A stretch of DNA of 64,000 nucleotides from Flavobacterium sp. (GTDB lineage Bacteria; Bacteroidota; Bacteroidia; Flavobacteriales; Flavobacteriaceae): positions 6,776 through 70,775 of the forward strand of contig NZ_JBIIVK010000007.1 of the NCBI RefSeq assembly GCF_044339515.1, given 5' to 3'. The notes below the pieces were generated by a model. It ran no database searches and was not told where the DNA came from. It worked only from the letters and a program-made list of their open reading frames with translations. Shown here piece after piece: positions 5,103 through 41,971 of the stretch; position 1 is the first letter of the stretch; every line of letters begins with the position of its first letter. The translations under genes and the position numbers were made by a program.

Positions 5103-6455
5103 TTAATCGGTTGAACCTAAATTGTATTTTTCCATTCTTCGGTACAAAGCCGCTCTTGACAATCCGAGTTCTTCAGCCGATTTGCTTATGTTGAAGTTAT
5201 TTCTATACAATACTTTTTCAATGGAAATTTTTTCAATGTCGGACAAAGGCATTTCTTCCATTTCAAAAGGTGAAAAGTTTATCACATCCAAATCTAAATC
5301 AGCACTTTTGATGGTATTATTTTCACACAAAATCACTGCTCTTTCGATACGATTCTCCATTTCCCGAATGTTTCCTTTCCAAGCGTTTTTTTGGATTTGT
5401 TCCAACGCTTTTTCCTCAAAAACGATTTCTTCTCGTTCATATTTTTGAGTAATTTTTTCCAATAAAAAAGTAGCCAACGGAACAATATCCTCTTTTCGTT
5501 CATGAAGCGATGGAAGTTTAATTTCCATGGTATTGATGCGATAATACAAATCTTCTCTGAATTTTTTTGCGTTAACTTCTTTTTTCAAATCAAGATTTGT
5601 TGCCGTAATAATTCGAATGTTCAATGGTCTGGACTTAGATTCTCCCAATCGCGTAACCGATTTATTTTGAATCACTTGTAATAATTTAGTTTGCAAATGC
5701 AACGGAACATTACCGATTTCGTCTAAAAAAATCGTGCCGTTCTGAGCGGCTTCAAATCGTCCCGGTGTATCATTTTTGGCATCTGTAAAAGCCCCTTTGG
5801 CATAGCCGAATAACTCACTTTCAAAGATACTTTCACTCAACGAACCCAAATCAACATGCACAAAAGCTTCTTTTTTCCGATTGGATTGTTGATGAATATA
5901 ATGTGCTAAAACGAATTTTCCAGTTCCGTTTTCACCTAATATCAACACATTTGCATCGGTTTTTGCAACTTTATCTGCCAAAGAATATGCTTTTTGAATG
6001 GCAATTGATTTTCCGATGAAAAATGAATCTACCTTTACTGAATCTATGGTTTTCTTTCTAATTTTTCGATTTTCTTCAACAGCAAATTTAACAACCGAAA
6101 CCAATTTTTCATTGTCCCACGGTTTTAAAATATAATCAAAAGCTCCTAATTTCAGACCCTCAACAGCGGTTTCCACTTTCCCAAATGCTGTCATCAAAAT
6201 CACCGTCGTTTTGGGTGAAAGGGTTTTGATTTCTTTCAACAAATAGATTCCTTCTCGTCCGTCTTCAAAACCAATGCGGTAATTCATATCCAGCAAAATC
6301 ACATCAACTTCATTTTCTGCTAATAATTCAACTACTTTTTTTGGATTATTGAGTGTAAAAATGGTTTCAAAATGTTTCTTCAACACCATTTTACAAGCAA
6401 ATAGAATGTCTTCTTGATCGTCAATAATTAAAATAGTAGCATTTGTTTTTTTCAT
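5103..6455 (-). CDS. NtrC-type sigma54-dependent response regulator
   Basis: REC domain (IIDD...LLDMN), Walker A GENGTGK, ESELFG..GAFTDA, FLDEI, C-terminal Fis-type HTH. Confidence 0.95.
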   Translation of the reverse strand: MKKTNATILIIDDQEDILFACKMVLKKHFETIFTLNNPKKVVELLAENEVDVILLDMNYRIGFEDGREGIYLLKEIKTLSPKTTVILMTAFGKVETAVEGLKLGAFDYILKPWDNEKLVSVVKFAVEENRKIRKKTIDSVKVDSFFIGKSIAIQKAYSLADKVAKTDANVLILGENGTGKFVLAHYIHQQSNRKKEAFVHVDLGSLSESIFESELFGYAKGAFTDAKNDTPGRFEAAQNGTIFLDEIGNVPLHLQTKLLQVIQNKSVTRLGESKSRPLNIRIITATNLDLKKEVNAKKFREDLYYRINTMEIKLPSLHERKEDIVPLATFLLEKITQKYEREEIVFEEKALEQIQKNAWKGNIREMENRIERAVILCENNTIKSADLDLDVINFSPFEMEEMPLSDIEKISIEKVLYRNNFNISKSAEELGLSRAALYRRMEKYNLGSTD

Positions 6456-7886: not shown

Positions 7887-8591
7887 ATGATCACGATTCA
7901 AAAATTATCAAAAATCTTCCGAACAGAAGAAGTAGAAACCAAAGCTTTAAACGAAATTGATTTGGTTGTTCATCAAGGCGAATTTGTTACCATTATGGGA
8001 GCTTCCGGTTGCGGAAAATCTACCTTACTCAACATTGTGGGTTTGTTAGACAGTGCCTCGGGAGGAAGTTATCAATTGTTGAACCAAGAAATGACTGGTC
8101 TGAATGAATCAGAAAAATCGAAAATCAGAAAGCAAAACATCGGATTTATTTTTCAAAATTTCAACTTGATTGATGAACTTTCAGTGTTTGACAATATTGA
8201 ATTACCACTTATTTATAATAATGTTCCAACTTCTGAAAGAAAGAAAAAAGTGGAAGCAATTGCTGAGCGTTTAGCTATTTCACATCGTTTGAAGCATTTT
8301 CCACAACAACTTTCAGGAGGTCAACAACAACGAGTTGCTGTGGCAAGAGCGTTAATCAATGATCCAAAAATCATTTTAGCCGATGAACCAACCGGAAATC
8401 TAGACAGTAAAAACGGTAATGAAGTGATGGAATTGCTAACCGATTTACACGCCAACGGAGCCACAATTTTGATGGTAACACACTCCGATTATGACGCTTC
8501 TTTTTCTCAAAAAACCATTTATATGAAAGATGGAATGGTGATTTCTGAAAAACAAAACAGTAGAAATGTTGATGTTTTGGTAACCAATTAA
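7887..8591 (+). CDS. ABC transporter ATP-binding protein (MacB/LolD type)
   Basis: GASGCGKST, LSGGQQQR, ILADEPTGNLD. Confidence 0.95.
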   Translation: MITIQKLSKIFRTEEVETKALNEIDLVVHQGEFVTIMGASGCGKSTLLNIVGLLDSASGGSYQLLNQEMTGLNESEKSKIRKQNIGFIFQNFNLIDELSVFDNIELPLIYNNVPTSERKKKVEAIAERLAISHRLKHFPQQLSGGQQQRVAVARALINDPKIILADEPTGNLDSKNGNEVMELLTDLHANGATILMVTHSDYDASFSQKTIYMKDGMVISEKQNSRNVDVLVTN

Positions 8592-8602
8592 ACAGTAAAA
8601 TC

Positions 8603-11035: not shown

Positions 11036-12329
11036 GAGGTTAATCATTTTGTTCTTATTTACTTCGAGCATTTTTGTGCGTGGCCAAGAAGTGTCTTGGT
11101 CACTGCAAAAGTGTTTTGAGGTAGCTTTGCAAAACAATATCGATATAAAAATCAAACAATTGGAGATTTTACGTTCCAAAAAAAGCTATACGAATCCGTT
11201 GTTAGAATTAGTTCCATCTGTCGGATTAACGGCTAATCATAGTTACAATTTTGGTTCTACGATTGATCCAAATACCAATGCCAGAGTTAGTTCTGATATT
11301 CAATGGGATAATCTTAGCTTTAATGCCTCTATCAATTTACTCGATTTTTCAAACTTAGCAACAGCCGGGAAAAATAAATTGGAAGTCGAATTAAGCAAAG
11401 CCGATAAAGAGGTGGTTGAGTACGAATATAAATTGCAATTGCTCGAAAAATATTTTGAAGTATTATACAGTCAGGAGCAACTAAAAATTCAACAAGAACA
11501 GTTCAAAAACACCGTTGATAATTTAGAGCGTATTCAAAAAGAAGTCGAAATCGGTAGCAAACCAAAAAGTGATTTGTATGATATGCAATTCAATTTTTCA
11601 TTGGAAGAAAATCAAATTTTGGTTTCCAAACAGCTGTATGAATACAAAAAAAAAGAACTTTTTCAATTGATGAACGACAATGAAACGAGTTCGGAAAACG
11701 TTTCGTTAGAACCTTATTTTGCATCAAACACAGTTGAAAATAATTTTGAAATCACTAACAATCCAAAACTAAATTTCGCTAAAATCAGTTTTAAAGCTTT
11801 TAAAAAAGACGTAGGAGTTTTAAGAGGAAATAATCTCCCTACTTTGTCTGCTTTTTACGGTTTTTCAACATTCTATTCTACTCCAATAAACACGCCTAAT
11901 GTTCCGGTGGATGATTTTCAAACACAATTTGACAACAACAAGTATCATCAGACCGGATTGCAGTTGCAAATACCCATTTTCACCGGATTCAAACAAAACC
12001 GAAGAATTGCCGCAGCAAAAATTCAAACAGAAAAAGCCAAATGGGAGGCCGAACAAGAGAAAATTAAAATCAATCAACAAATCGAATTAGAAAAAACTCA
12101 AAAAAATAATTATTTCCAACGCAATCAAAAACTCAAAAACTCACTTGAACTTGCTGAAAAAATGTTAACCACTTCGCAAGCAAAATTTCTAAGCGGAAAA
12201 ACGGATGCCGTAGTGTTTTCTGCCGTCAAAAACCAACGATTGAATGCTGAATACGAAGTTTTAAAAAATGATTTGTTGTTTCAATATACTTCCGTGAAAA
12301 TAAATCTGCTTACTAAAAATCAATTGTAA
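11028..12329 (+). CDS. TolC-family outer-membrane channel
   Basis: Signal peptide, SLQKCFEVALQNN, LQIPIFTG; last gene of the efflux operon. Confidence 0.9.
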   Translation: MNKRLIILFLFTSSIFVRGQEVSWSLQKCFEVALQNNIDIKIKQLEILRSKKSYTNPLLELVPSVGLTANHSYNFGSTIDPNTNARVSSDIQWDNLSFNASINLLDFSNLATAGKNKLEVELSKADKEVVEYEYKLQLLEKYFEVLYSQEQLKIQQEQFKNTVDNLERIQKEVEIGSKPKSDLYDMQFNFSLEENQILVSKQLYEYKKKELFQLMNDNETSSENVSLEPYFASNTVENNFEITNNPKLNFAKISFKAFKKDVGVLRGNNLPTLSAFYGFSTFYSTPINTPNVPVDDFQTQFDNNKYHQTGLQLQIPIFTGFKQNRRIAAAKIQTEKAKWEAEQEKIKINQQIELEKTQKNNYFQRNQKLKNSLELAEKMLTTSQAKFLSGKTDAVVFSAVKNQRLNAEYEVLKNDLLFQYTSVKINLLTKNQL

Positions 12330-32189: not shown

Positions 32190-35100
32190 ATGTATTTGAT
32201 CTTCGATACCGAAACCACCGGCTTGCCCAAACGATGGGATGCACCACTAACCGATACCAACAACTGGCCTCGTTGTATTCAAATTGCTTGGCAATTGCAC
32301 GACGAAATGGGAAATTTGGTTGAGCATCAAGATTATCTTGTGCAACCGGACGGATTTAATATTCCGTATGATGCAGAAAGAATTCACGGGATTTCTACCG
32401 AATTAGCTCAACAAAATGGTATTCAGATCAAAGAAATGTTGGAGAAATTCAATAGTGCATTGTCAAAAGCAAAATACATTGTTGGACAAAATGTTGGGTT
32501 TGATGTCAATATTTTAGGATGTGAATTTTTTAGAATGGGAATCGATTCACCCATGTCAAAAATGCCGATTTTGGATACGTGTACCGAAGTTACTGCTTCC
32601 TTATTAAAACTTCCGGGTGGTAGGGGTGGAAAATTCAAATTACCAACGCTTACTGAATTACATCAATACCTTTTTAATGAACCCTTTGCGGAAGCTCACA
32701 ACGCCACTGCCGATGTAGAAGCCACCACAAGATGTTTTTTAGAATTGATTCGAACCGAAGTTTTTACCAAAGAAGAACTCGACGTTGAACCGGAATATTT
32801 TGAAGATTTTCAGTTAAAAAATCCGAGGGCAATTCAATTAATTGGATTAAAACACATCAATCTCAAAGAAGCGTCTGAGCAAATTAGAAAGAAGCTTCAA
32901 AAAATTGAAAACGAAACGGTTCAAACTACCATTTCAGCCGAAGAGAAAAGAGATTTTAAACACGCAAAGTTTGCTCACCTTCACAACCATACACAATTTT
33001 CTGTTTTACAATCTACAATTGCGATTCCGGCACTGGTTTCTGCTACAGCTAAAAATAAAATGACGGCAGTTGCCATGACCGATTCAGGAAACATGATGGG
33101 AGCTTTTCACTTTGTGAGTGCTGTGATGAACCACAATAAAGCAGTAAAAGCGAAAATTGATGCGGCTGTTGCCAATAGCGAAGAACCGGAAGATGCTGAA
33201 ATTAAACCGATTGTAGGTTGCGAATTTTACATTTGTGATAACCATAAAGACAAAACCAAAAAAGACAACGGGTATCAAGTGGTGTTCTTGGCTAAAAATA
33301 AAAAAGGCTATCATAATTTAGCCAAAATGGCTTCTATTGCTTATATCGATGGCTTTTATTATGTGCCAAGAATTGATAGAGCAATAGTTGAACAATACAA
33401 AGAAGATGTAATTGTACTTTCCGGAAATTTATATGGAGAAATTTCCGGTAAAATTTTAAATATCGGTGAAAACCAAGCCGAAGAAGCTTTGCTTTGGTGG
33501 AAAGAGCAATTTGGCGATGATTTTTATCTCGAAATCATGCGTCATAATCAAGAAGATGAAAATCGGGTGAACAAAACCTTGATTGAATTTTCGCAAAAGT
33601 ATCAGGTTAAATTAGTGGCTACAAACAATACCTATTACCTAAATAAAGAAGATGCCAATGCACATGACATTTTGTTGTGTGTAAAAGATGGTGAAAAACA
33701 AGCCACACCAATTGGTCGAGGTCGAGGCTATCGATATGGTTTGCCCAATCAGGAGTATTATTTCAAATCGGAAGACGAAATGAAAAAACTATTTGCTGAT
33801 TTGCCCGAAGCCATTTTAAACATCAATGAAGTAGTTGATAAAATTGAAATTTTCGATTTAGCTCGTGGAGTTTTACTACCAAAGTTTGATATTCCTGAAG
33901 AGTTTTTAGTTTCTGAAGATGAAGAAGATGGAGGGAAAAGAGGTGAAAATTTATATTTGAGATATCTTACGTATGAAGGTGCTAAAAAGCGATACGGGAC
34001 TATTACTCCCGAAATTGAAGAACGATTGGATTTTGAATTAAAAACTATCGAAAACACAGGTTATCCTGGTTACTTTTTGATTGTTCAAGATTTTATCAGA
34101 GCCGCTCGTGAAATGGATGTTTCGGTTGGACCCGGTCGTGGTTCTGCTGCCGGTTCGGTGGTGGCGTATTGTTTGTGGATTACGAATATTGACCCATTAG
34201 AATACGATTTGCTTTTTGAGCGTTTCCTAAATCCGGATAGGGTTTCGATGCCCGATATTGATATCGATTTTGATGATGAAGGTCGTGGTCGTGTGATGCA
34301 ATATGTGATTGATAAATACGGTTCCAATCAGGTGGCTCAAATTATTACCTACGGTAAAATGGCAACCAAATCTTCGTTGAGAGATACCGCTCGTGTGTTG
34401 GATTTACCACTTTTTGAAGCCGATAAATTAGCCAAATTGATTCCGGGAATGATGCCTGGAAAATGGAGTTTAGCCCGATTTTTATCCGATTCAATTGAGG
34501 AAGTAAAAAAAGCTGTTCGTTCGGATGAATTTGATAATATTAAAGAATTAATTGCCATTGCCAACGAAGGTGATTTAGCCGGAGAAACCATCCAACAAGC
34601 AAAAGTGTTGGAAGGTTCGCTTCGAAATACCGGAATTCACGCGTGTGGAGTCATCATTACGCCAAGCGATATCACCAATTTCGTTCCTGTGGCAACGGCC
34701 AAGGATTCCGATTTATATGTCACTCAATTTGACAACTCGGTGGTAGAAAGTGCCGGATTGTTGAAGATGGACTTTTTAGGATTAAAAACCCTTACATTAA
34801 TAAAAGACACTGTTAAATTAATTAAATACAGAACCGGAAAAGAACTTGATCCGGATACTTTTCCCATTGATGATGTAAAGACGTATGAACTTTTTCAACG
34901 TGGTGAAACAGTTGGAATTTTTCAATATGAATCGGTTGGAATGCAAAAGTACCTTCGTGATTTAAAGCCAACCGTTTTTGGAGATTTAATTGCGATGAAT
35001 GCGTTGTATCGTCCGGGACCATTAGAATATATTCCGTCTTTTGTTCTTAGAAAAAATGGCCAAGAAGAAATAAAATATGACTTAGATGCTTGTGCAGAAT

Positions 35101-36704
35101 ATTTAAGCGAGACGTACGGAATTACAGTTTATCAAGAGCAAGTAATGCTTTTGTCTCAATCTTTGGCCGATTTTTCAAAAGGTGATGCCGACGTTTTGCG
35201 TAAAGCAATGGGAAAAAAAGATAGAGCAACGTTGGATAAAATGAAACCAAAATTTATAGAACAAGCTGCATCTAAAGGTCACGATGCAACTGTTTTAGAA
35301 AAAATTTGGAAAGATTGGGAAGCTTTTGCGAGTTATGCCTTCAACAAATCGCACTCTACTTGCTACGCTTGGATTGGCTATCAAACCGCTTATTTAAAAG
35401 CTCATTATCCTGCGGAATACATGGCGGCAGTGCTTTCTAACAATATGAATGACATCAAACAGGTTTCATTTTTTATGGAAGAATGCAAGCGAATGGGATT
35501 GCGGGTTTTAAGTCCGGATGTAAATGAATCGTTTTATAAATTTACTGTAAATGATGATGGTGCGATTCGTTTTGGAATGGGTGCCATCAAAGGAGTAGGA
35601 GCAGGAGCAGTGGAAACTATAGTTCAAAATCGATTGAAAGACGGAAAATATAAATCCATTTTTGATTTAGCGAAGCGTATCGATTTGCGTGCCGCGAATA
35701 AAAAGGCCTTTGAAAATTTAGCTTTAGCCGGTGGTTTTGATGGTTTTTCGTCTACGCATCGGGCACAATATTTCCATCACGATGGTGATAACATTACGTT
35801 TTTGGAAAAAGCGATTCGTTACGGAGCAAAATTTCAGGAAAATGAAAATTCGGCTCAAGTGAGTTTGTTTGGTGAAGCCAGTGATGTTCAAATTGCAGAA
35901 CCACAAGTTCCTCCTTGCGACGAATGGAGTACGATGGAAAAATTAGCCAAAGAAAAAGAAGTGGTTGGTATTTACATTTCCGGCCATCCGTTGGATGATT
36001 TTCGTTTTGAGATGAAATATTTTTGTAATTCTAAATTAGAATACCTTAAAAATTTGGAGCAACATGTGAATAAAACGTTGACTTTTGGCGGAATTATTAC
36101 CAACGTGCAACATCGTGTGGCTCAAAACGGAAAAGGCTGGGCATCCTTTATGCTGGAAGGATATGATGAAAGCTATGAGTTCAGAATTTATGGTGAAGAA
36201 TATTTAAAATTCCGACATTTTATCATTCAAAATAATTTTACGTTTATAAAAGTGATGGTGCGAGAAGGTTGGGCAAACAAAGAAACCGGCAAAAAAGGGG
36301 ATCCACGAATTACGTTTCAATTGATTCAGTACTTGCAGGATGTGTTGCCACAATTCGCTAAAAAACTAACCATTCAAATGGATATTATGGCATTGCAACA
36401 AAATTTGATTGCCGAGTTAAGTGCTATTTTTAAAACATTTCAAGGTGATAATGCGGTTACGTTTGAGGTAATGGAATTGGAAAAAGTAAAAAAAGAAGTA
36501 GAAATTAAACCAATTGCAATTGCTTCGGATGATGACTTAGATATTGAAAATTTAGAAGACATTGAAATAGAAATAGAAGCTCCAACGGAGGAAATAAGAG
36601 TTGTTAATCAATTATCATTGCCTAGTAGAAAATTAAAAGTCAAAATAAGTAACGAGCTTTTATCAGAATTATCAAAGTTGAACGTAGATTTTAGATTGAA
36701 TTAA
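32190..36704 (+). CDS. dnaE: DNA polymerase III alpha subunit with N-terminal DEDDh 3'-5' exonuclease
   Basis: FDTETTG...HNATAD exonuclease, PHP domain, GPGRGSAAGS, PDIDIDFD, KMDFLGL, FNKSH. Confidence 0.97.
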   Translation: MYLIFDTETTGLPKRWDAPLTDTNNWPRCIQIAWQLHDEMGNLVEHQDYLVQPDGFNIPYDAERIHGISTELAQQNGIQIKEMLEKFNSALSKAKYIVGQNVGFDVNILGCEFFRMGIDSPMSKMPILDTCTEVTASLLKLPGGRGGKFKLPTLTELHQYLFNEPFAEAHNATADVEATTRCFLELIRTEVFTKEELDVEPEYFEDFQLKNPRAIQLIGLKHINLKEASEQIRKKLQKIENETVQTTISAEEKRDFKHAKFAHLHNHTQFSVLQSTIAIPALVSATAKNKMTAVAMTDSGNMMGAFHFVSAVMNHNKAVKAKIDAAVANSEEPEDAEIKPIVGCEFYICDNHKDKTKKDNGYQVVFLAKNKKGYHNLAKMASIAYIDGFYYVPRIDRAIVEQYKEDVIVLSGNLYGEISGKILNIGENQAEEALLWWKEQFGDDFYLEIMRHNQEDENRVNKTLIEFSQKYQVKLVATNNTYYLNKEDANAHDILLCVKDGEKQATPIGRGRGYRYGLPNQEYYFKSEDEMKKLFADLPEAILNINEVVDKIEIFDLARGVLLPKFDIPEEFLVSEDEEDGGKRGENLYLRYLTYEGAKKRYGTITPEIEERLDFELKTIENTGYPGYFLIVQDFIRAAREMDVSVGPGRGSAAGSVVAYCLWITNIDPLEYDLLFERFLNPDRVSMPDIDIDFDDEGRGRVMQYVIDKYGSNQVAQIITYGKMATKSSLRDTARVLDLPLFEADKLAKLIPGMMPGKWSLARFLSDSIEEVKKAVRSDEFDNIKELIAIANEGDLAGETIQQAKVLEGSLRNTGIHACGVIITPSDITNFVPVATAKDSDLYVTQFDNSVVESAGLLKMDFLGLKTLTLIKDTVKLIKYRTGKELDPDTFPIDDVKTYELFQRGETVGIFQYESVGMQKYLRDLKPTVFGDLIAMNALYRPGPLEYIPSFVLRKNGQEEIKYDLDACAEYLSETYGITVYQEQVMLLSQSLADFSKGDADVLRKAMGKKDRATLDKMKPKFIEQAASKGHDATVLEKIWKDWEAFASYAFNKSHSTCYAWIGYQTAYLKAHYPAEYMAAVLSNNMNDIKQVSFFMEECKRMGLRVLSPDVNESFYKFTVNDDGAIRFGMGAIKGVGAGAVETIVQNRLKDGKYKSIFDLAKRIDLRAANKKAFENLALAGGFDGFSSTHRAQYFHHDGDNITFLEKAIRYGAKFQENENSAQVSLFGEASDVQIAEPQVPPCDEWSTMEKLAKEKEVVGIYISGHPLDDFRFEMKYFCNSKLEYLKNLEQHVNKTLTFGGIITNVQHRVAQNGKGWASFMLEGYDESYEFRIYGEEYLKFRHFIIQNNFTFIKVMVREGWANKETGKKGDPRITFQLIQYLQDVLPQFAKKLTIQMDIMALQQNLIAELSAIFKTFQGDNAVTFEVMELEKVKKEVEIKPIAIASDDDLDIENLEDIEIEIEAPTEEIRVVNQLSLPSRKLKVKISNELLSELSKLNVDFRLN

Positions 36705-36732: not shown

Positions 36733-39503
36733 ATGGCAAAAAATTTAACTTTCGATCAAGAGCTTCGTAGTCTTCAAAAATATATTGAAAGTAACGAAAA
36801 TGAAGATGCAAAAAGACAATTGCTATATCCATTATTTACAAAACTCTTTAAAGATAAATTTAAAATTGAATCTGCTCAAAATACTCACGGAGCAGATGGA
36901 TATGTTGAAGGACAACTTATTGTTGAAGCCAAAACAAATTTTACACAGTGGCTTGATGGCTTTTATCAAGCATTACATTATAAAAAGAAATTTGTCTTTC
37001 TTATAATTCTATTATGGTTATTTCAAATGAGTTTTGTGCCATTTGGAAAATTAAAAACTTACCGGAATATGCTGTGATTTTATCTCACAGTGCTGATGCG
37101 AATCTTGCTCCAAGCACAGTGGGGAAAGAAAATGCGAGAAAAACTGCCAACAACAATAAACTTTTAATCAAAGAAGCAGCTCAATATTGGCTTGATCCTA
37201 AAGACTTAAAGGGAGAACTTTTTAATGGAAGGAAAAGTTTAATTACAGAAACTTACGAAATTTTAAAAGTTCTTAAGAATCTTGATTCCGAAAGAATACT
37301 TGTAAATAAACACAATTTTATTCATGCTATTGAGCGAATGAAATTCTTTTTTGAGAATCCAATTGATGCTGTTCATGCATTTTATTCTATAATTCCATAT
37401 TGGGATATTACGTCTTCGGTTGCAGAAAATGACAACACAGAAACCATTCAAGTTATCGGTTATTCTGGCAAGAAAGCATCAGAAAATATTAACATTATTA
37501 CCAAGCATAAAAAGGAATTTATCAAGTTTATTGAAACCCAATATATTTTTACAAATGAAGGTTCGGGATTAACGGTTGATTATTATTTTTCTCGTTTTGA
37601 TGAGGTTTTGGCAGCTATTGATCCAGAATATGTAAAACAACACGGAATATTTTTTACCGATGATAACTTAAGTAAGTTTGCACTTTGGTTTGCTAAAAAT
37701 GAAGTATTTGAAACGATTCATGAAAATTATGTAGTTTTCGATCCAGCAGGAGGTTCGGGTAACTTAATTAGCAGTTATAAAGGAAAATTAAAACATAAAA
37801 TCATTTCGGAACTTCAACCTGATTTATTGAAGATTATTGAAAAAAGGATGAAAGCCGATCCTTGGCATATTGAAACCGGTTTTACCATTGTACCCAAAAC
37901 AGCTGAAAACGAAGGTCTAAATTTTCTTGACCGAAGCGGTGCCGATTATTACAACGAATTAGAAAAAGCAGTTTTAAAAAACACAAACAAAGGAATTGAT
38001 AAACCATTGGCTTTTTTATTAAATCCACCGTATAAAAATACAGATGAAAATGTTTCTGCTCGTGAAAAATCGGATGCGGAATATGAAATAAATACTGATA
38101 TCCTTGCACTTACGGGTGCAGACGCTGGGAAAGAACGCTATTTAGCTTTTCTTGGGCAAATTTTAAACATTTGCAAAGCACAAACCGAAAAATTACCCGA
38201 TGCAAAACCATTGGTAATGATTTTTACACCAACTTCTTGGTTAATTCCTCGTCCAACATACAAACAATTTAGAAAAACTTGGGATGAAAATTTTACCTAC
38301 TTAAATGGTTTCATCACTACAAGTAATGAGTTTTTTAAACTAAAAGGGAAATGGCCTTTGGCTTTTACCATTTGGCAATATGAACCAAATGAAGAAAGAG
38401 AAAACAAAGTAAAAGTTTTAGATTTAACCCAAGTAAAGAAAAATGATTTAGCTTTCAATTGGAATGATATTGACGAGGAATTAAACCCTATTGTTGAAAG
38501 TTATTTAAACACATTCTGTTCTTTAGAAATTTCTGATAAAAGATTTTCTCTGAGAGACAGTTTGCCTGAAATTAAAACAAAGGCAGGTAAATATGTTAGA
38601 CAGCCAAGATTAAATTTATATAGAAATCCGTCAAAAAATGAAAAAGCAAATGGAAATGAAAATGGTTTTGCTTTAAATGACACAAAACATAATGGTTTGA
38701 GTGCACCTCATGGCTATTCCAATGGAAATTTTATTGGATTTATGGAAGACAATGCCTTGGTTAGATGTAAAGAAGATACATGTAATAGGTTGTCATATAA
38801 TCCTGATAGAGTTTGGTTCAAACTTGATCATATGTTTGTAAATATCAACATAACTAGAATTCAAAGTGGAACACCAGACCAATTTGGATATTGTGCATAC
38901 GATTTACCCACTTCTGAAGTATGTTTCACTTGGTTTGCTATTGCTAAAAATTTAGTTGGAAAATATCCAACTTGGGCAAATCAATATGATTTATGGAAAC
39001 CAAATATTTCAGAAAATTTAAAAGAAGATTGGTTTGCATTATGTTATGCTTTTGGCCTAGCAGAAAACCGTTGTGTGGTTACCAAGTTTGAAAAAGACAA
39101 TCCAGTTGTTGGTACACCGGAAGTGTGGGTTGATAATCCTATGAGTCCAAACAATCAGGAAAGTTTTTATAGAACTACTTTGCAAAAGGAAATCAAAAAA
39201 TCTAAATCAGTTGCCAATGATTTAGCAACAACTATTGAAGAATTTTATCAATATTGGAATTTGAATTATACTAAAGGTCAAATTTTAGAAAATGTAGGTT
39301 TGCATGAAGAAGCTTATTTTAAATATTTTGATTATCTAGATTTTGTAACCAAAGACAGCGGATTAATTCAAATAAAAAAATATGCTGAGGTTAATGAGTG
39401 CTCAGATTTATTAGAAAAAACAGTATTGATTTCAGAAAAAACTAAATTAGTGAAGGAAGAAATCTATAGAATGTTAATTGAAGATTTTAAGTATTTTGAG
39501 TAA
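36733..39503 (+). pseudogene. Type IIG-like restriction-modification fusion (PD-(D/E)xK nuclease + N6-adenine MTase + TRD), split by a -1 frameshift near 36982-36995
   Basis: ORF 36733-37077 has ADGY...IVEAK. ORF 37014-39503 has VFDPAGGSGNL and LNPPY. The second frame is open from 36984; joined product about 923 aa. Confidence 0.75.
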
Positions 39504-40373
39504 ATGGGTAAAACAGCCACAACAGTTGAAGAACAAATAGTATTGCTTCAAAGCAGAGGAATGGTATTTGATTGTGAAATAGAAAAAGTAAAAGAAACCC
39601 TGCTCGATATTGGTTACTATCGTTTAGGTTTTTATTCGTACTATTTTCAGGATAGAATGACACATCATTTTACAACTCACGTTCATTTTAATGATATAAT
39701 CAAACTTTACTATTTTGATTTTGATATGAAAATGTTACTCCTTAGATACATTTATAGAGTAGAAGTTCATTTTCGTACGCAATTGTTATATTACGCATCA
39801 AATCATTATAAAGACAATAACACTTGGTACGTTGACCCTAAAATAGTTGACAACTCTATTTTAAAAGAATTCAACACTATTTATTTTATCTTAAAAACTA
39901 AAAACAAAAGTCTGATAAAACATCATGTTAAATATCCAAGTGATTTTGCACCAGCCTGGAAAGTTTTTGAATTTTTAACATTTGGCCAAATTTATAAACT
40001 GTTCTCCAGCCTTAAAAATACAGAACTAAAAAAACAAATAGCAGCAGTATATGGTTTTAGAGAGGTTTCTTTGTTGGACAATTATTTAATATCAATTATT
40101 AACATTAGAAATATATGCTCACATAATGGCGTACTTTTTGATTATAATCAGCCAATTGGTATAAAAAGAATTCCTAATTTAAAGTACAGAATTAAAAACT
40201 GGAATAATACAAATTTAAATGCTTCATTACGATTGATACTTTTCATATTGAGTAAAGTATCTAAAAATAGAGCTAATGATTTAGAACAAGAAATAAAGAT
40301 TTTACTAGAAACTACATCGGAGAACGAACTTGTAAAAAACATAATTAATTCTAAAATAAAGTTTGATTTATAA
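39504..40373 (+). CDS. Abi_2 (AbiD/AbiF-like) HEPN-domain abortive-infection protein
   Basis: TVEEQIVLLQSRG...IGYYRL N-terminus, PAWKVFEFLTFG, HEPN motif RNICSH; ATG directly after the RM stop (TAAATG). Confidence 0.9.
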   Translation: MGKTATTVEEQIVLLQSRGMVFDCEIEKVKETLLDIGYYRLGFYSYYFQDRMTHHFTTHVHFNDIIKLYYFDFDMKMLLLRYIYRVEVHFRTQLLYYASNHYKDNNTWYVDPKIVDNSILKEFNTIYFILKTKNKSLIKHHVKYPSDFAPAWKVFEFLTFGQIYKLFSSLKNTELKKQIAAVYGFREVSLLDNYLISIINIRNICSHNGVLFDYNQPIGIKRIPNLKYRIKNWNNTNLNASLRLILFILSKVSKNRANDLEQEIKILLETTSENELVKNIINSKIKFDL

Positions 40374-40391
40374 ATTTTTTAATTACCTTTG
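40362..40391 (+). promoter_or_regulatory. Bacteroidota sigma70 promoter for the RNA downstream of abi
   Basis: TTTG (40362-40365), 18 nt, TACCTTTG (40384-40391), matching TTG..TAnnTTTG. Confidence 0.75.
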
Positions 40392-40396
40392 TACCC

Positions 40397-40485
40397 TCAA
40401 AGTGCACTACTATACAAGCTGCTATAGATGAGCACTATAAAATAAGAAAGTAAACCCAGACATTTTTTTGCTCTGGGTTTTTTTT
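40397..40485 (+). ncRNA. Candidate ~90-nt structured RNA (putative AbiF-type RNA antitoxin)
   Basis: Own promoter; AGTGC/GCACT and CTATA/TATAG stem-loop; terminator; no ORF. Confidence 0.65.
40452..40485 (+). terminator. Intrinsic terminator
   Basis: AAACCCAGA-N11-TCTGGGTTT followed by a T-run. Confidence 0.85.
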
Positions 40486-40618
40486 ATGTTTTGTATTGTA
40501 TCAATTCCACCAATACATTCATAATCAAAACTAATTTTCAATTAACACGACTTTAAGTTTTAAATTTTTAAATTTGCAATGTTAAATAAACAAATAATAA
40601 TCAATAAAAAAATATAAA

Positions 40619-40936
40619 ATGGCATTAGCAATTACAGACGCTACTTTTGATGAAGTAGTTTTAAAATCAGACAAACCGGTGGTAGTAGATTTTTGGGCAG
40701 CTTGGTGCGGACCATGTAGGATGGTTGGACCGGTTATCGATGAAATCGCAACAGAATATGAAGGAAAAGCGGTTGTTGGAAAAGTGGACGTAGATGCAAA
40801 CCAAGAATTTGCTGCAAAATATGGCGTGAGAAATATTCCAACGGTATTAGTTTTTCAAAATGGTGAAGTGGTAGGAAGACAAGTAGGAGTAGCTCCAAAG
40901 AAAAATTATACCGATGCAATTGATGCGTTGTTATAA
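40619..40936 (+). CDS. trxA: Thioredoxin
   Basis: FWAAWCGPC, VDVD, IPT. Confidence 0.97.
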   Translation: MALAITDATFDEVVLKSDKPVVVDFWAAWCGPCRMVGPVIDEIATEYEGKAVVGKVDVDANQEFAAKYGVRNIPTVLVFQNGEVVGRQVGVAPKKNYTDAIDALL

Positions 40937-40955
40937 TTTTTAATAAAAATAAATT

Positions 40956-40986
40956 TGAAGGTCTGATGAAAATCAGGCCTTTTTTA
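40956..40986 (+). terminator. Intrinsic terminator after trxA
   Basis: AAGGTCTGAT-GAAA-ATCAGGCCTTTTTTT. Confidence 0.8.
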
Positions 40987-41044
40987 ATGCTTAACTTTTC
41001 TTTATCTTTGAATCGAACCAATTTGGTACATAGATAAAGAAAAG

Positions 41045-41971
41045 ATGATGATTGAACAACAAAAAGAACTCATTTCTGGTTTTAAACATTTAGAATTATT
41101 AGCCAATCAAGTGGTGGAAGGCTTTATTTCAGGAATGCACAAATCGCCATTTCACGGATTTTCAGCAGAATTTGCCGAGCATAAAGTGTATAACAAAGGC
41201 GAAAGTACCAAACACATTGATTGGAAATTATTTGCTAAAACCGACCGTTTATATACCAAACGATATGAAGAAGAAACTAATTTGCGATGTCATTTGATTA
41301 TCGATAATTCTTCTTCCATGCATTTCCCTCAATTGGAATCGGGACAGCCGTTTTATGAGAGTAAAATTGGTTTTTCAGTTTTAGCAGCTGCCGTTTTAAT
41401 GAATTTGCTCAAAAAACAACGGGATGCAGTGGGATTAAGTGTTTTTTCAGACACCTATGAATATTATGCTCCTGAAAAAGGTAGTGATCGCCACCATCGT
41501 ATGATTTTAAACAAATTAGAAGATTTATTGGAAAATTCCAAAGTGGCCAAACCAACCGAAACGGTTACTTTTTTACATCAAATTGCCGAAAAAATGCACC
41601 GTCGTTCAATGATTGTTTTGTTTACGGATATGTTTCAAAATGGGGAAGAAGAAAAGCTATTCAACGCTCTACAACATTTAAAACATAATAAACACAAAGT
41701 AGTTTTGTTTCATGTGGTAGATGAAAAAAGAGAACTAAATTTCGATTTTGACAATACACCTCGTAAATTTATTGATGTAGAATCGGGTGAAACCGTCAAT
41801 TTATTTGCCGAAAACATCAAAGAAGTGTATGAAAAAAGTGTGGATTCCTATTTCAAAAAAGTTGCCATGACGTGTGCTCAGAACAAAATAAAATATGTTC
41901 CGGTCAATGTTGGAGCCAATTTTGAAAAAATTCTCACGACATATTTAGTTGAAAAACAAATGTTTGGATAG
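41045..41971 (+). CDS. DUF58 (vWA-like) protein
   Basis: GMHKSPFHGFSAEFAEHKVY, IDWK, YEEETN, DNSSSM. Confidence 0.9.
   Translation: MMIEQQKELISGFKHLELLANQVVEGFISGMHKSPFHGFSAEFAEHKVYNKGESTKHIDWKLFAKTDRLYTKRYEEETNLRCHLIIDNSSSMHFPQLESGQPFYESKIGFSVLAAAVLMNLLKKQRDAVGLSVFSDTYEYYAPEKGSDRHHRMILNKLEDLLENSKVAKPTETVTFLHQIAEKMHRRSMIVLFTDMFQNGEEEKLFNALQHLKHNKHKVVLFHVVDEKRELNFDFDNTPRKFIDVESGETVNLFAENIKEVYEKSVDSYFKKVAMTCAQNKIKYVPVNVGANFEKILTTYLVEKQMFG

Follow-up and report, generated by a model that had tools for sequence, protein, structure and literature searches.

A hairpin RNA gene downstream of an Abi_2-type HEPN RNase gene in Flavobacterium: a candidate RNA antitoxin with toxin-less relatives in phages

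Small-RNA control of AbiF-type HEPN RNases, the proposed ancestors of Cas13 (PMC12737573), was shown only in 2025, in two systems that both have the RNA upstream of the toxin gene. A 64,000-nt stretch of Flavobacterium sp. DNA (assembly GCF_044339515.1, contig NZ_JBIIVK010000007.1; here called the window, to which all positions refer unless a locus is named) contains a gene of this kind, abi, with a short structured RNA on its downstream side. The locus raises the question of whether this RNA is a gene in its own right and, if so, whether it is the antitoxin of the abi product, as a preliminary description of the sequence had proposed. We conclude, with a probability of roughly 0.78, that the locus is a two-part protein–RNA (type III-like) toxin–antitoxin (TA) abortive-infection module of the AbiF/AbiD family with a downstream RNA gene; by analogy with studied relatives, the small hairpin RNA is most likely the antidote that would keep the toxin off.

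The abi gene (39504..40373, + strand; TAA stop codon at 40371–73, as read in the sequence of 39000–41200) specifies a 289-aa HEPN RNase of the Abi_2/AbiD-F type, the putative toxin. The protein matches Pfam Abi_2 (PF07751; E 1.9e-39, 136.3 bits for a cut-off of 25.6), the PADLOC AbiD model (E 1.2e-47, 160.9 bits) and chain A of PDB entry 8VZ6, the 'Abi family protein' PbAbiF (E 2.7e-22). The last alignment pairs query residues 4–271 with chain residues 10–279, pointing to homology over the full length. The HEPN motif RNICSH (residues 202–207, R202...H207, encoded at 40107–40124) aligns with RNSCCH of 8VZ6; R202, N203, C205 and H207 are invariant in an alignment with 12 relatives (alignment A1), and the catalytic pattern R-phi-x3-H expected of AbiF-like toxins is conserved. 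As judged from this homology, the open reading frame (ORF) at 39504–40373 encodes an HEPN RNase of the AbiF/Abi_2 family, in agreement with the preliminary description, which had recognized such a gene by its RNICSH motif. Searches of deposited phage genomes and of PLSDB plasmids, with E limits of 1e-20 and 1e-30, gave no homologue.

The predicted promoter of the RNA gene (40362..40391, + strand) is of the Bacteroidota type, with a −33 TTTG at 40362–65, inside the 3′ end of the abi ORF, followed after 18 nt by the −7 box TACCTTTG at 40384–91. The hairpin element begins 27 nt past the abi stop codon and consists of an outer stem (AGTGC 40401–05/GCACT 40432–36) and an inner stem (CTATA 40410–14/TATAG 40423–27), with internal loops at 40406–09 and 40428–31 and the apical loop CAAGCTGC at 40415–22. 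Its conserved 3′ tail, AUAAAA (40437–42), opens an A-rich single-stranded linker (AUAAAAUAAGAAAGU, 40437..40451, + strand), which leads to an intrinsic terminator (40452..40487, + strand) identified by folding and by pairing across loci and composed of the stem AAACCCAGA/TCTGGGTTT, an 11-nt loop and a T-run. The RNA core at 40395..40446 (+ strand) is matched by the covariance model R1, described below, with 50.1 bits (E 6e-10). A 99-nt stretch folds at −24.5 kcal/mol (z = −4.05 compared with shuffles), and the predicted RNA is about 90 nt long. Since no terminator lies between abi and the hairpin, a read-through abi mRNA would carry one copy of the hairpin in its 3′ untranslated region (UTR), and the terminator at 40452..40487 would end both the short RNA and any such transcript. 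In the preliminary description, the promoter, stems, loop and terminator had been placed at positions that the sequence bears out in every case, with trxA next after the terminator (TIGR01068 match, start 40619).

The pattern TTTG...TAnnTTTG occurs 8 times in the window for 6.5 expected, no excess over chance, and the promoter claim therefore rests on conservation across loci. A scan for sigma-70 and terminator consensus sequences was uninformative for a Bacteroidota promoter, and it missed the terminator because of the 11-nt loop. Taken on its own, the single sequence is no more than suggestive; the weight lies with the comparative evidence.

When 300 genomes from the same family (Flavobacteriaceae) were searched with the protein, the relatives proved to be of two kinds. 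The closest come from Flavobacterium and Lutibacter assemblies, and the five nearest (40–68% identity, different genera) all have the promoter–hairpin–terminator module after the stop codon, while 21 remoter ones (about 30–37% identity) have a different hairpin RNA, located upstream. Protein or alignment scans of species genomes, metagenomes and viral contigs added 127 loci. From 69 distinct hairpins (alignment A2) we built R1, a covariance model of 52 positions and 10 pairs, which matches the window once only, at 40395–40446. R1 adjoins the abi ORF on the gene's strand in 122 of 133 subfamily loci (31–83% protein identity; genomes, metagenomes and viral contigs), a set that contains near-duplicates and whose members, being relatives, are not independent; the R1 E-values are rough. 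The match lies downstream of the abi stop codon in 112 loci (median 45 nt, range 17–122) and just before the abi start codon in 10. Only two other matches were found in the about 590 kb searched, both with E near 1 (0.95 in locus L037 and 0.84 in L079), and none in the 21 loci of the remoter kind. Flanking sequences, compared for about 70 loci, form 51 similarity groups on the upstream side and 55 on the downstream side; with such unrelated flanks around a shared gene and RNA, the two travel as one unit.

Eleven of the 133 loci gave no R1 match. Six of them are cut by contig ends and three (L074, L093 and L109) have a divergent hairpin recognizable by eye, which leaves L035, with a truncated ORF, and L079, with an intact gene. 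In L035, a metagenomic locus whose protein is 83% identical, the abi ORF is shortened to 275 aa and the 107 nt left beyond it contain no hairpin; possibly the copy has decayed, losing the end of the toxin and the RNA together. A different arrangement was seen in L043 (about 1020–1071), where the abi ORF enters the hairpin and its stop codon falls within the 3′ half of the stem, so gene and RNA can overlap.

The preliminary description had named alignment of the 3′ flanks of Abi_2 homologues and a covariance model as a check on the RNA, and this analysis revealed both conservation and covariation. In the R1-fitted alignment of 98 sequences, 92.7% of paired cells are complementary and 186 cells carry double-sided changes, compared with 62 in shuffles; the covariation score of 0.436 exceeds that of shuffles (0.125) and that of slid partners (at most 0.09). 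Strong covariation sits in the inner stem. A structure-blind run with MAFFT and RNAalifold arrived at an identical set of ten pairs, and compensatory changes occur in eight of these. Individual letters are conserved in the AGUGC/GCACU base, at a C and a GC in the apical loop, and in the nearly invariant UAAAA right after the stem (A45–A47 invariant and A48 at least 90% in alignment A2). Considering that these letters lie in base, loop and tail, we take them to indicate sequence-specific recognition of the RNA and not of a generic hairpin.

The transcription signals are conserved as well. Of 87 distinct loci, 82 (94%) have a −7 box of the form T[AT]nn[TC]TTG whose end lies 4–12 nt (mode 9) ahead of the hairpin, compared with 2.7% of random positions, and in 74 of the 87 a stem and T-run come after it. 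Changes in the terminator stem preserve pairing (CCCAG/CTGGG, CCTAG/CTAGG, CCCGG/CCGGG), and the implied RNA length is about 73–96 nt across loci. A perfect TAnnTTTG belongs to 80 of 85 RNA genes, whereas only 32 of the 85 abi genes have one among the 150 nt upstream, a contrast that would fit an RNA produced in excess over the toxin. Together, these alignments support the view that the RNA is a real, conserved and covarying element with its own predicted promoter and terminator.

A maximum-likelihood tree of 125 proteins splits into two clades with 100% SH-aLRT support. PbAbiF falls into clade A (21 rows), where the RNA is upstream and of the other type; the window protein is in clade B (104 rows). 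PbAbiF is 39% identical to members of clade A and about 28–30% to clade B. The loci with an upstream R1 cassette form a single nested subclade within clade B (support 87), in which the cassette is complete and runs promoter, hairpin, terminator, abi, the canonical type III order; RNA and protein thus stay together in either order. In clade A (L007–L027), we observed a conserved promoter–hairpin–U-tract RNA of their own upstream of the abi ORFs, for example about 100 nt before the start codon in L009. Its sequence, ACAGUACACACC ACGCU ... AGCGU CCCA GGGUGUGU CUUUUGC, differs from that of the clade-B RNA, although the general architecture is alike; this RNA (ACAGUACACACC...GGGUGUGUCUUUU) ends in its own U-tract and doubles as the terminator or attenuator. 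Four viral contigs from IMG/VR (L196, L206, L218 and L222) carry an R1-type hairpin 165 nt downstream of an Abi_2 gene whose best match is the clade-A locus L025 (41%), and RNA type and protein clade may therefore not be strictly coupled.

Neither RNA type is found in Rfam. Rfam 15, searched at permissive thresholds, yielded no family for the RNA region of the window, the abiF family RF03085 included, and none of its families matches the clade-B or the clade-A type in the homologous loci. RF03085 itself (gathering score 37 bits) had no match with E ≤ 10 in 39000–41200, in 40360–40500 or in the whole genome. Matches to trpB, MicC and other Rfam families were all well below their own gathering scores and were discarded as chance.

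Hairpins of the same family also occur without a toxin gene. A scan of viral contigs (IMG/VR) for the exact pattern AGTGCC, 20–32 nt, TGCACTNTAAAA gave at least 118 stretches, 80 of which (L155–L234) were analyzed, and R1 matched 62 of the 80 at E ≤ 0.01. When these 62 were sorted by a six-frame profile search for Abi_2, 9 lay beside an abi gene and 1 was located 3 kb from one; 32 had no abi gene within flanks of at least 1.3 kb on both sides, and 20 had none within short flanks. The orphan hairpins retain the conserved letters, and their inner stem is 88.9% paired, with 52 double-sided changes compared with 12.6 in shuffles. Since the scan pattern fixes the outer stem only and the inner stem covaries nonetheless, the orphans are true family members. 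The −7 box is present in only 4 of 44 orphans, and most are predicted to sit inside longer transcripts.

Fifteen of the orphans lie 0–170 nt after a gene for a 517–526-aa major head protein (phrog_11589), in a module of portal, unknown protein and head genes, and others follow a second, diverged phrog_11589 head gene, whose product is 64% identical to that of Cellulophaga phage phi14:2 (Crassvirales) and 44–47% identical to those of gut crAss phages. The phages with an orphan right behind the head gene are crAss-like relatives of phi14:2. Examples of orphans are those at 11154–11205 of L215, 5185–5235 of L192 and 2640–2691 of L224, all three on the − strand. Phage phi14:2 has a plain terminator after its head gene and no R1 match, so the hairpin is an accessory insertion. 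A DNA search with the capsid–hairpin region of L215 for a cultured phage with an orphan gave no match, and the first 50 kb of Flavobacterium phage Fpv1 contain only a 14-bit R1 match. In the group of phages with the orphan behind the head gene (L160, about 8420–8600(−); L179, about 5930–6100(−); L178, L159, L166 and L171), a terminator-like hairpin CCCCTC...GAGGGG precedes the orphan and further conserved structured segments, such as AGAGTGATGGATTGGGG...CACTCT, follow it; L160 and L179 also have a tRNA-Met after the orphan. The orphan region of this group looks like a small cluster of non-coding RNAs.

The most economical reading of the phage orphans, drawn from the precedent of pseudo-ToxI, is that they may be decoy antitoxins, and copies without a toxin gene accord with an antitoxin as well as with a decoy. 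Going further, we consider it possible, at somewhat less than even odds, that the mostly promoterless copies in phages of Flavobacteriia and Bacteroidota, crAss-like and others, which are often found in the 3′ UTR of the major head gene, allow late and massive capsid transcription to flood the cell with a decoy that disarms an AbiF-like defense, and that the downstream, trans-only RNA constitutes a second, independent type III TA architecture. If true, this would be an RNA anti-defense device directed against a HEPN/Cas13-ancestor system, and it would belong to the phage order that is dominant in the human gut and among many marine Bacteroidota; the phage copies provide a directly testable case of RNA-based counter-defense in crAss-like phages.

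How, then, might the RNA of the window act on the Abi protein? By analogy with PbAbiF–AbiFr and AbiFCd–RCd22, an abundant RNA made from its own strong promoter would bind the Abi dimer and block the HEPN site; phage infection would shut off or outcompete the RNA supply, and the freed RNase would cleave cellular or phage RNA and abort the infection. With its gene 3′ of the toxin gene, the RNA is unable to attenuate abi transcription as RCd22 does for its toxin gene, and it must act in trans. The proposal in the preliminary description of an RNA antitoxin paired with abi holds to the extent that a conserved, covarying structured RNA with its own promoter and terminator lies beside the toxin gene in 122 of 133 loci, which is one mark of a type III-like system. 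The layout reported for ToxIN, RCd22 and PbAbiF, an upstream RNA co-transcribed with the toxin and separated from it by a terminator, is found neither in the window nor in the 112 loci with a downstream RNA. The precedent that it had invoked, AbiF-family RNases paired with a cis-encoded non-coding RNA (ncRNA), applies to the protein, a PbAbiF homologue, but not to the RNA, given that the published RNAs lie upstream and are of another sequence type and that RF03085 has no match here.

Several observations weigh against an antitoxin role. The RNA sequence is unlike both published AbiF RNA types, with no RF03085 match in window or genome, and PbAbiF is a member of the sister clade, in which the RNA is upstream and of the other type. 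Because RNA type and clade both differ, neutralization is an extrapolation across about 28–30% protein identity. The covariation alignment was fitted to the model and so leans towards the structure, although the independent MAFFT alignment agrees with it. Finally, L079 is an intact homologue without the RNA in the 650 nt downstream of the gene.

Alternatively, the RNA could be a partner of Abi but not its inhibitor: a required cofactor, a guide or a sensor through which the RNase is activated or directed to its target, with the phage copies being the item recognized. Tight co-inheritance would suit any RNA partner that is obligate, AbiF has been proposed as the ancestor of the RNA-guided Cas13 (PMC12737573), and hairpins in highly expressed late phage mRNA could equally be a recognized target. 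We regard this explanation as unlikely. The RNA has no variable, spacer-like single-stranded segment, its variation being confined to the covarying stem, and both AbiF RNAs studied so far inhibit their toxins (PMC12737573; 10.1101/2025.04.15.648962). Moreover, a hairpin that triggers defense should be lost by phages, yet the orphans maintain their structure through compensatory changes, and the related cultured phage phi14:2 is simply without it.

The second alternative dispenses with a separate RNA gene and regards the element as a structure in the 3′ UTR or terminator of the abi mRNA that serves stability or termination. The short distance of 27 nt from the stop codon, with no terminator in between, means that read-through transcripts contain the hairpin, and the promoter pattern shows no excess over chance when this window is taken by itself. 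Across loci, however, the −7 box stands at a fixed 4–12 nt in 94% of cases (background 2.7%), one subclade has the cassette upstream with its own terminator, and toxin-less copies are present in phages. The conserved letters of loop, stem base and tail are needless for a terminator, and a separate terminator follows. This reading is thus highly improbable.

Scarcely better placed, and a shade less probable, is a mobile or phage-derived RNA element that exists independently and tends to land beside abi genes. Most strong matches of the pattern scan in viral contigs do have no abi gene nearby, but a search that starts from the protein shows 122 of 133 loci with the hairpin in a constant position and orientation, the hairpin follows the protein tree with the upstream position confined to one subclade, and neither inverted or direct repeats nor mobility genes accompany the hairpin in the loci read. 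Least probable of all is control of abi through base-pairing with its mRNA (antisense, type I-like or small regulatory RNA) in place of protein binding: small RNA genes beside toxin genes often act in this way in other TA types, but this RNA is on the same strand without ORF overlap, its conserved letters lie in a structured hairpin, and no consistent complementarity to the abi translation-initiation region was detected in 15 loci (mean z −0.67; window z −0.09).

The module is an islet between dnaE (32190–36704) and trxA. Directly before abi lies a type IIG-like restriction-modification (RM) gene (36733..39503, + strand) with a D...EAK nuclease motif and DPAGGSG and NPPY methyltransferase motifs; its frames have no Pfam or NCBIfam match. 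The RM stop codon directly adjoins the abi start codon (TAAATG), which makes co-transcription of abi with the RM gene probable. The RM gene is split in the window into overlapping frames of 114 and 829 aa. In the close relatives L028 (232–3000) and L034 (235–3000) it is intact, a single ORF of 921–922 aa directly before abi, and the window copy is therefore frameshifted, be it as a pseudogene, through a sequencing error or by a programmed shift. Another locus, L029, has the trxA-side flank in common with the window (40490–41300) but a different gene upstream of abi; different defense cargo seems to have entered the dnaE–trxA site repeatedly.

Among known systems, PbAbiF–AbiFr of a Prevotellaceae bacterium (8VZ6) is closest in its protein, a homologous Abi_2 HEPN protein from the same phylum. 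AbiFr binds PbAbiF and blocks the HEPN site, and the toxin is neutralized by the RNA (PMC12737573; PMC13064643). Both systems encode in cis a single short hairpin ncRNA for each toxin gene; the hairpin has two stems and an asymmetric internal loop and is driven by a Bacteroidota promoter. They differ in that PbAbiF belongs to the sister clade and its RNA is reported to lie upstream, whereas the window RNA is downstream with a separate terminator. AbiFCd–RCd22 of Clostridioides difficile (prophage phi027) likewise combines an Abi_2 toxin, with HEPN R202 and H207 at the same numbering, and an RNA with its own promoter and terminator that neutralizes the toxin in trans by direct binding. Unlike the window RNA, RCd22 is encoded upstream, contains two abiF (RF03085) motifs and also acts in cis through premature termination (10.1101/2025.04.15.648962). 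RNA neutralization has been demonstrated for both PbAbiF and AbiFCd (PMC12737573; 10.1101/2025.04.15.648962; PMC13064643). ToxIN/AbiQ resembles the module in that an RNase toxin is held by an RNA antitoxin in abortive infection, which is proposed here, and pseudo-ToxI (Blower et al., cited in PMC13064643) resembles the phage orphans as a phage-borne antitoxin look-alike that serves as an escape device. The ToxIN/AbiQ toxin fold is unrelated, however, and ToxI is an upstream tandem repeat array processed by the toxin, whereas the window has a single downstream hairpin. The lactococcal AbiD, AbiD1 and AbiF systems belong to the same Pfam family and are two-component systems of protein and RNA (PMC13064643), but their conserved non-coding region is upstream and they are plasmid systems of Firmicutes.

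Seen beside these systems, the sequence comparisons support a separate RNA family and another gene order within the AbiF type of TA system, the published AbiF RNAs examined all lying upstream; the primary report on PbAbiF is represented here by the papers that cite it and may itself list downstream RNAs. The locus stands for a large Bacteroidota subfamily (more than 100 loci) with a partner RNA family that Rfam lacks and that is usually encoded by a stand-alone gene behind the toxin gene, and annotation pipelines that search upstream only, or with RF03085 only, will label such toxins 'solitary'. Placement of the RNA gene downstream sets the trans function of the RNA (binding) apart from the cis function (attenuation), two functions that are confounded in the systems studied so far.

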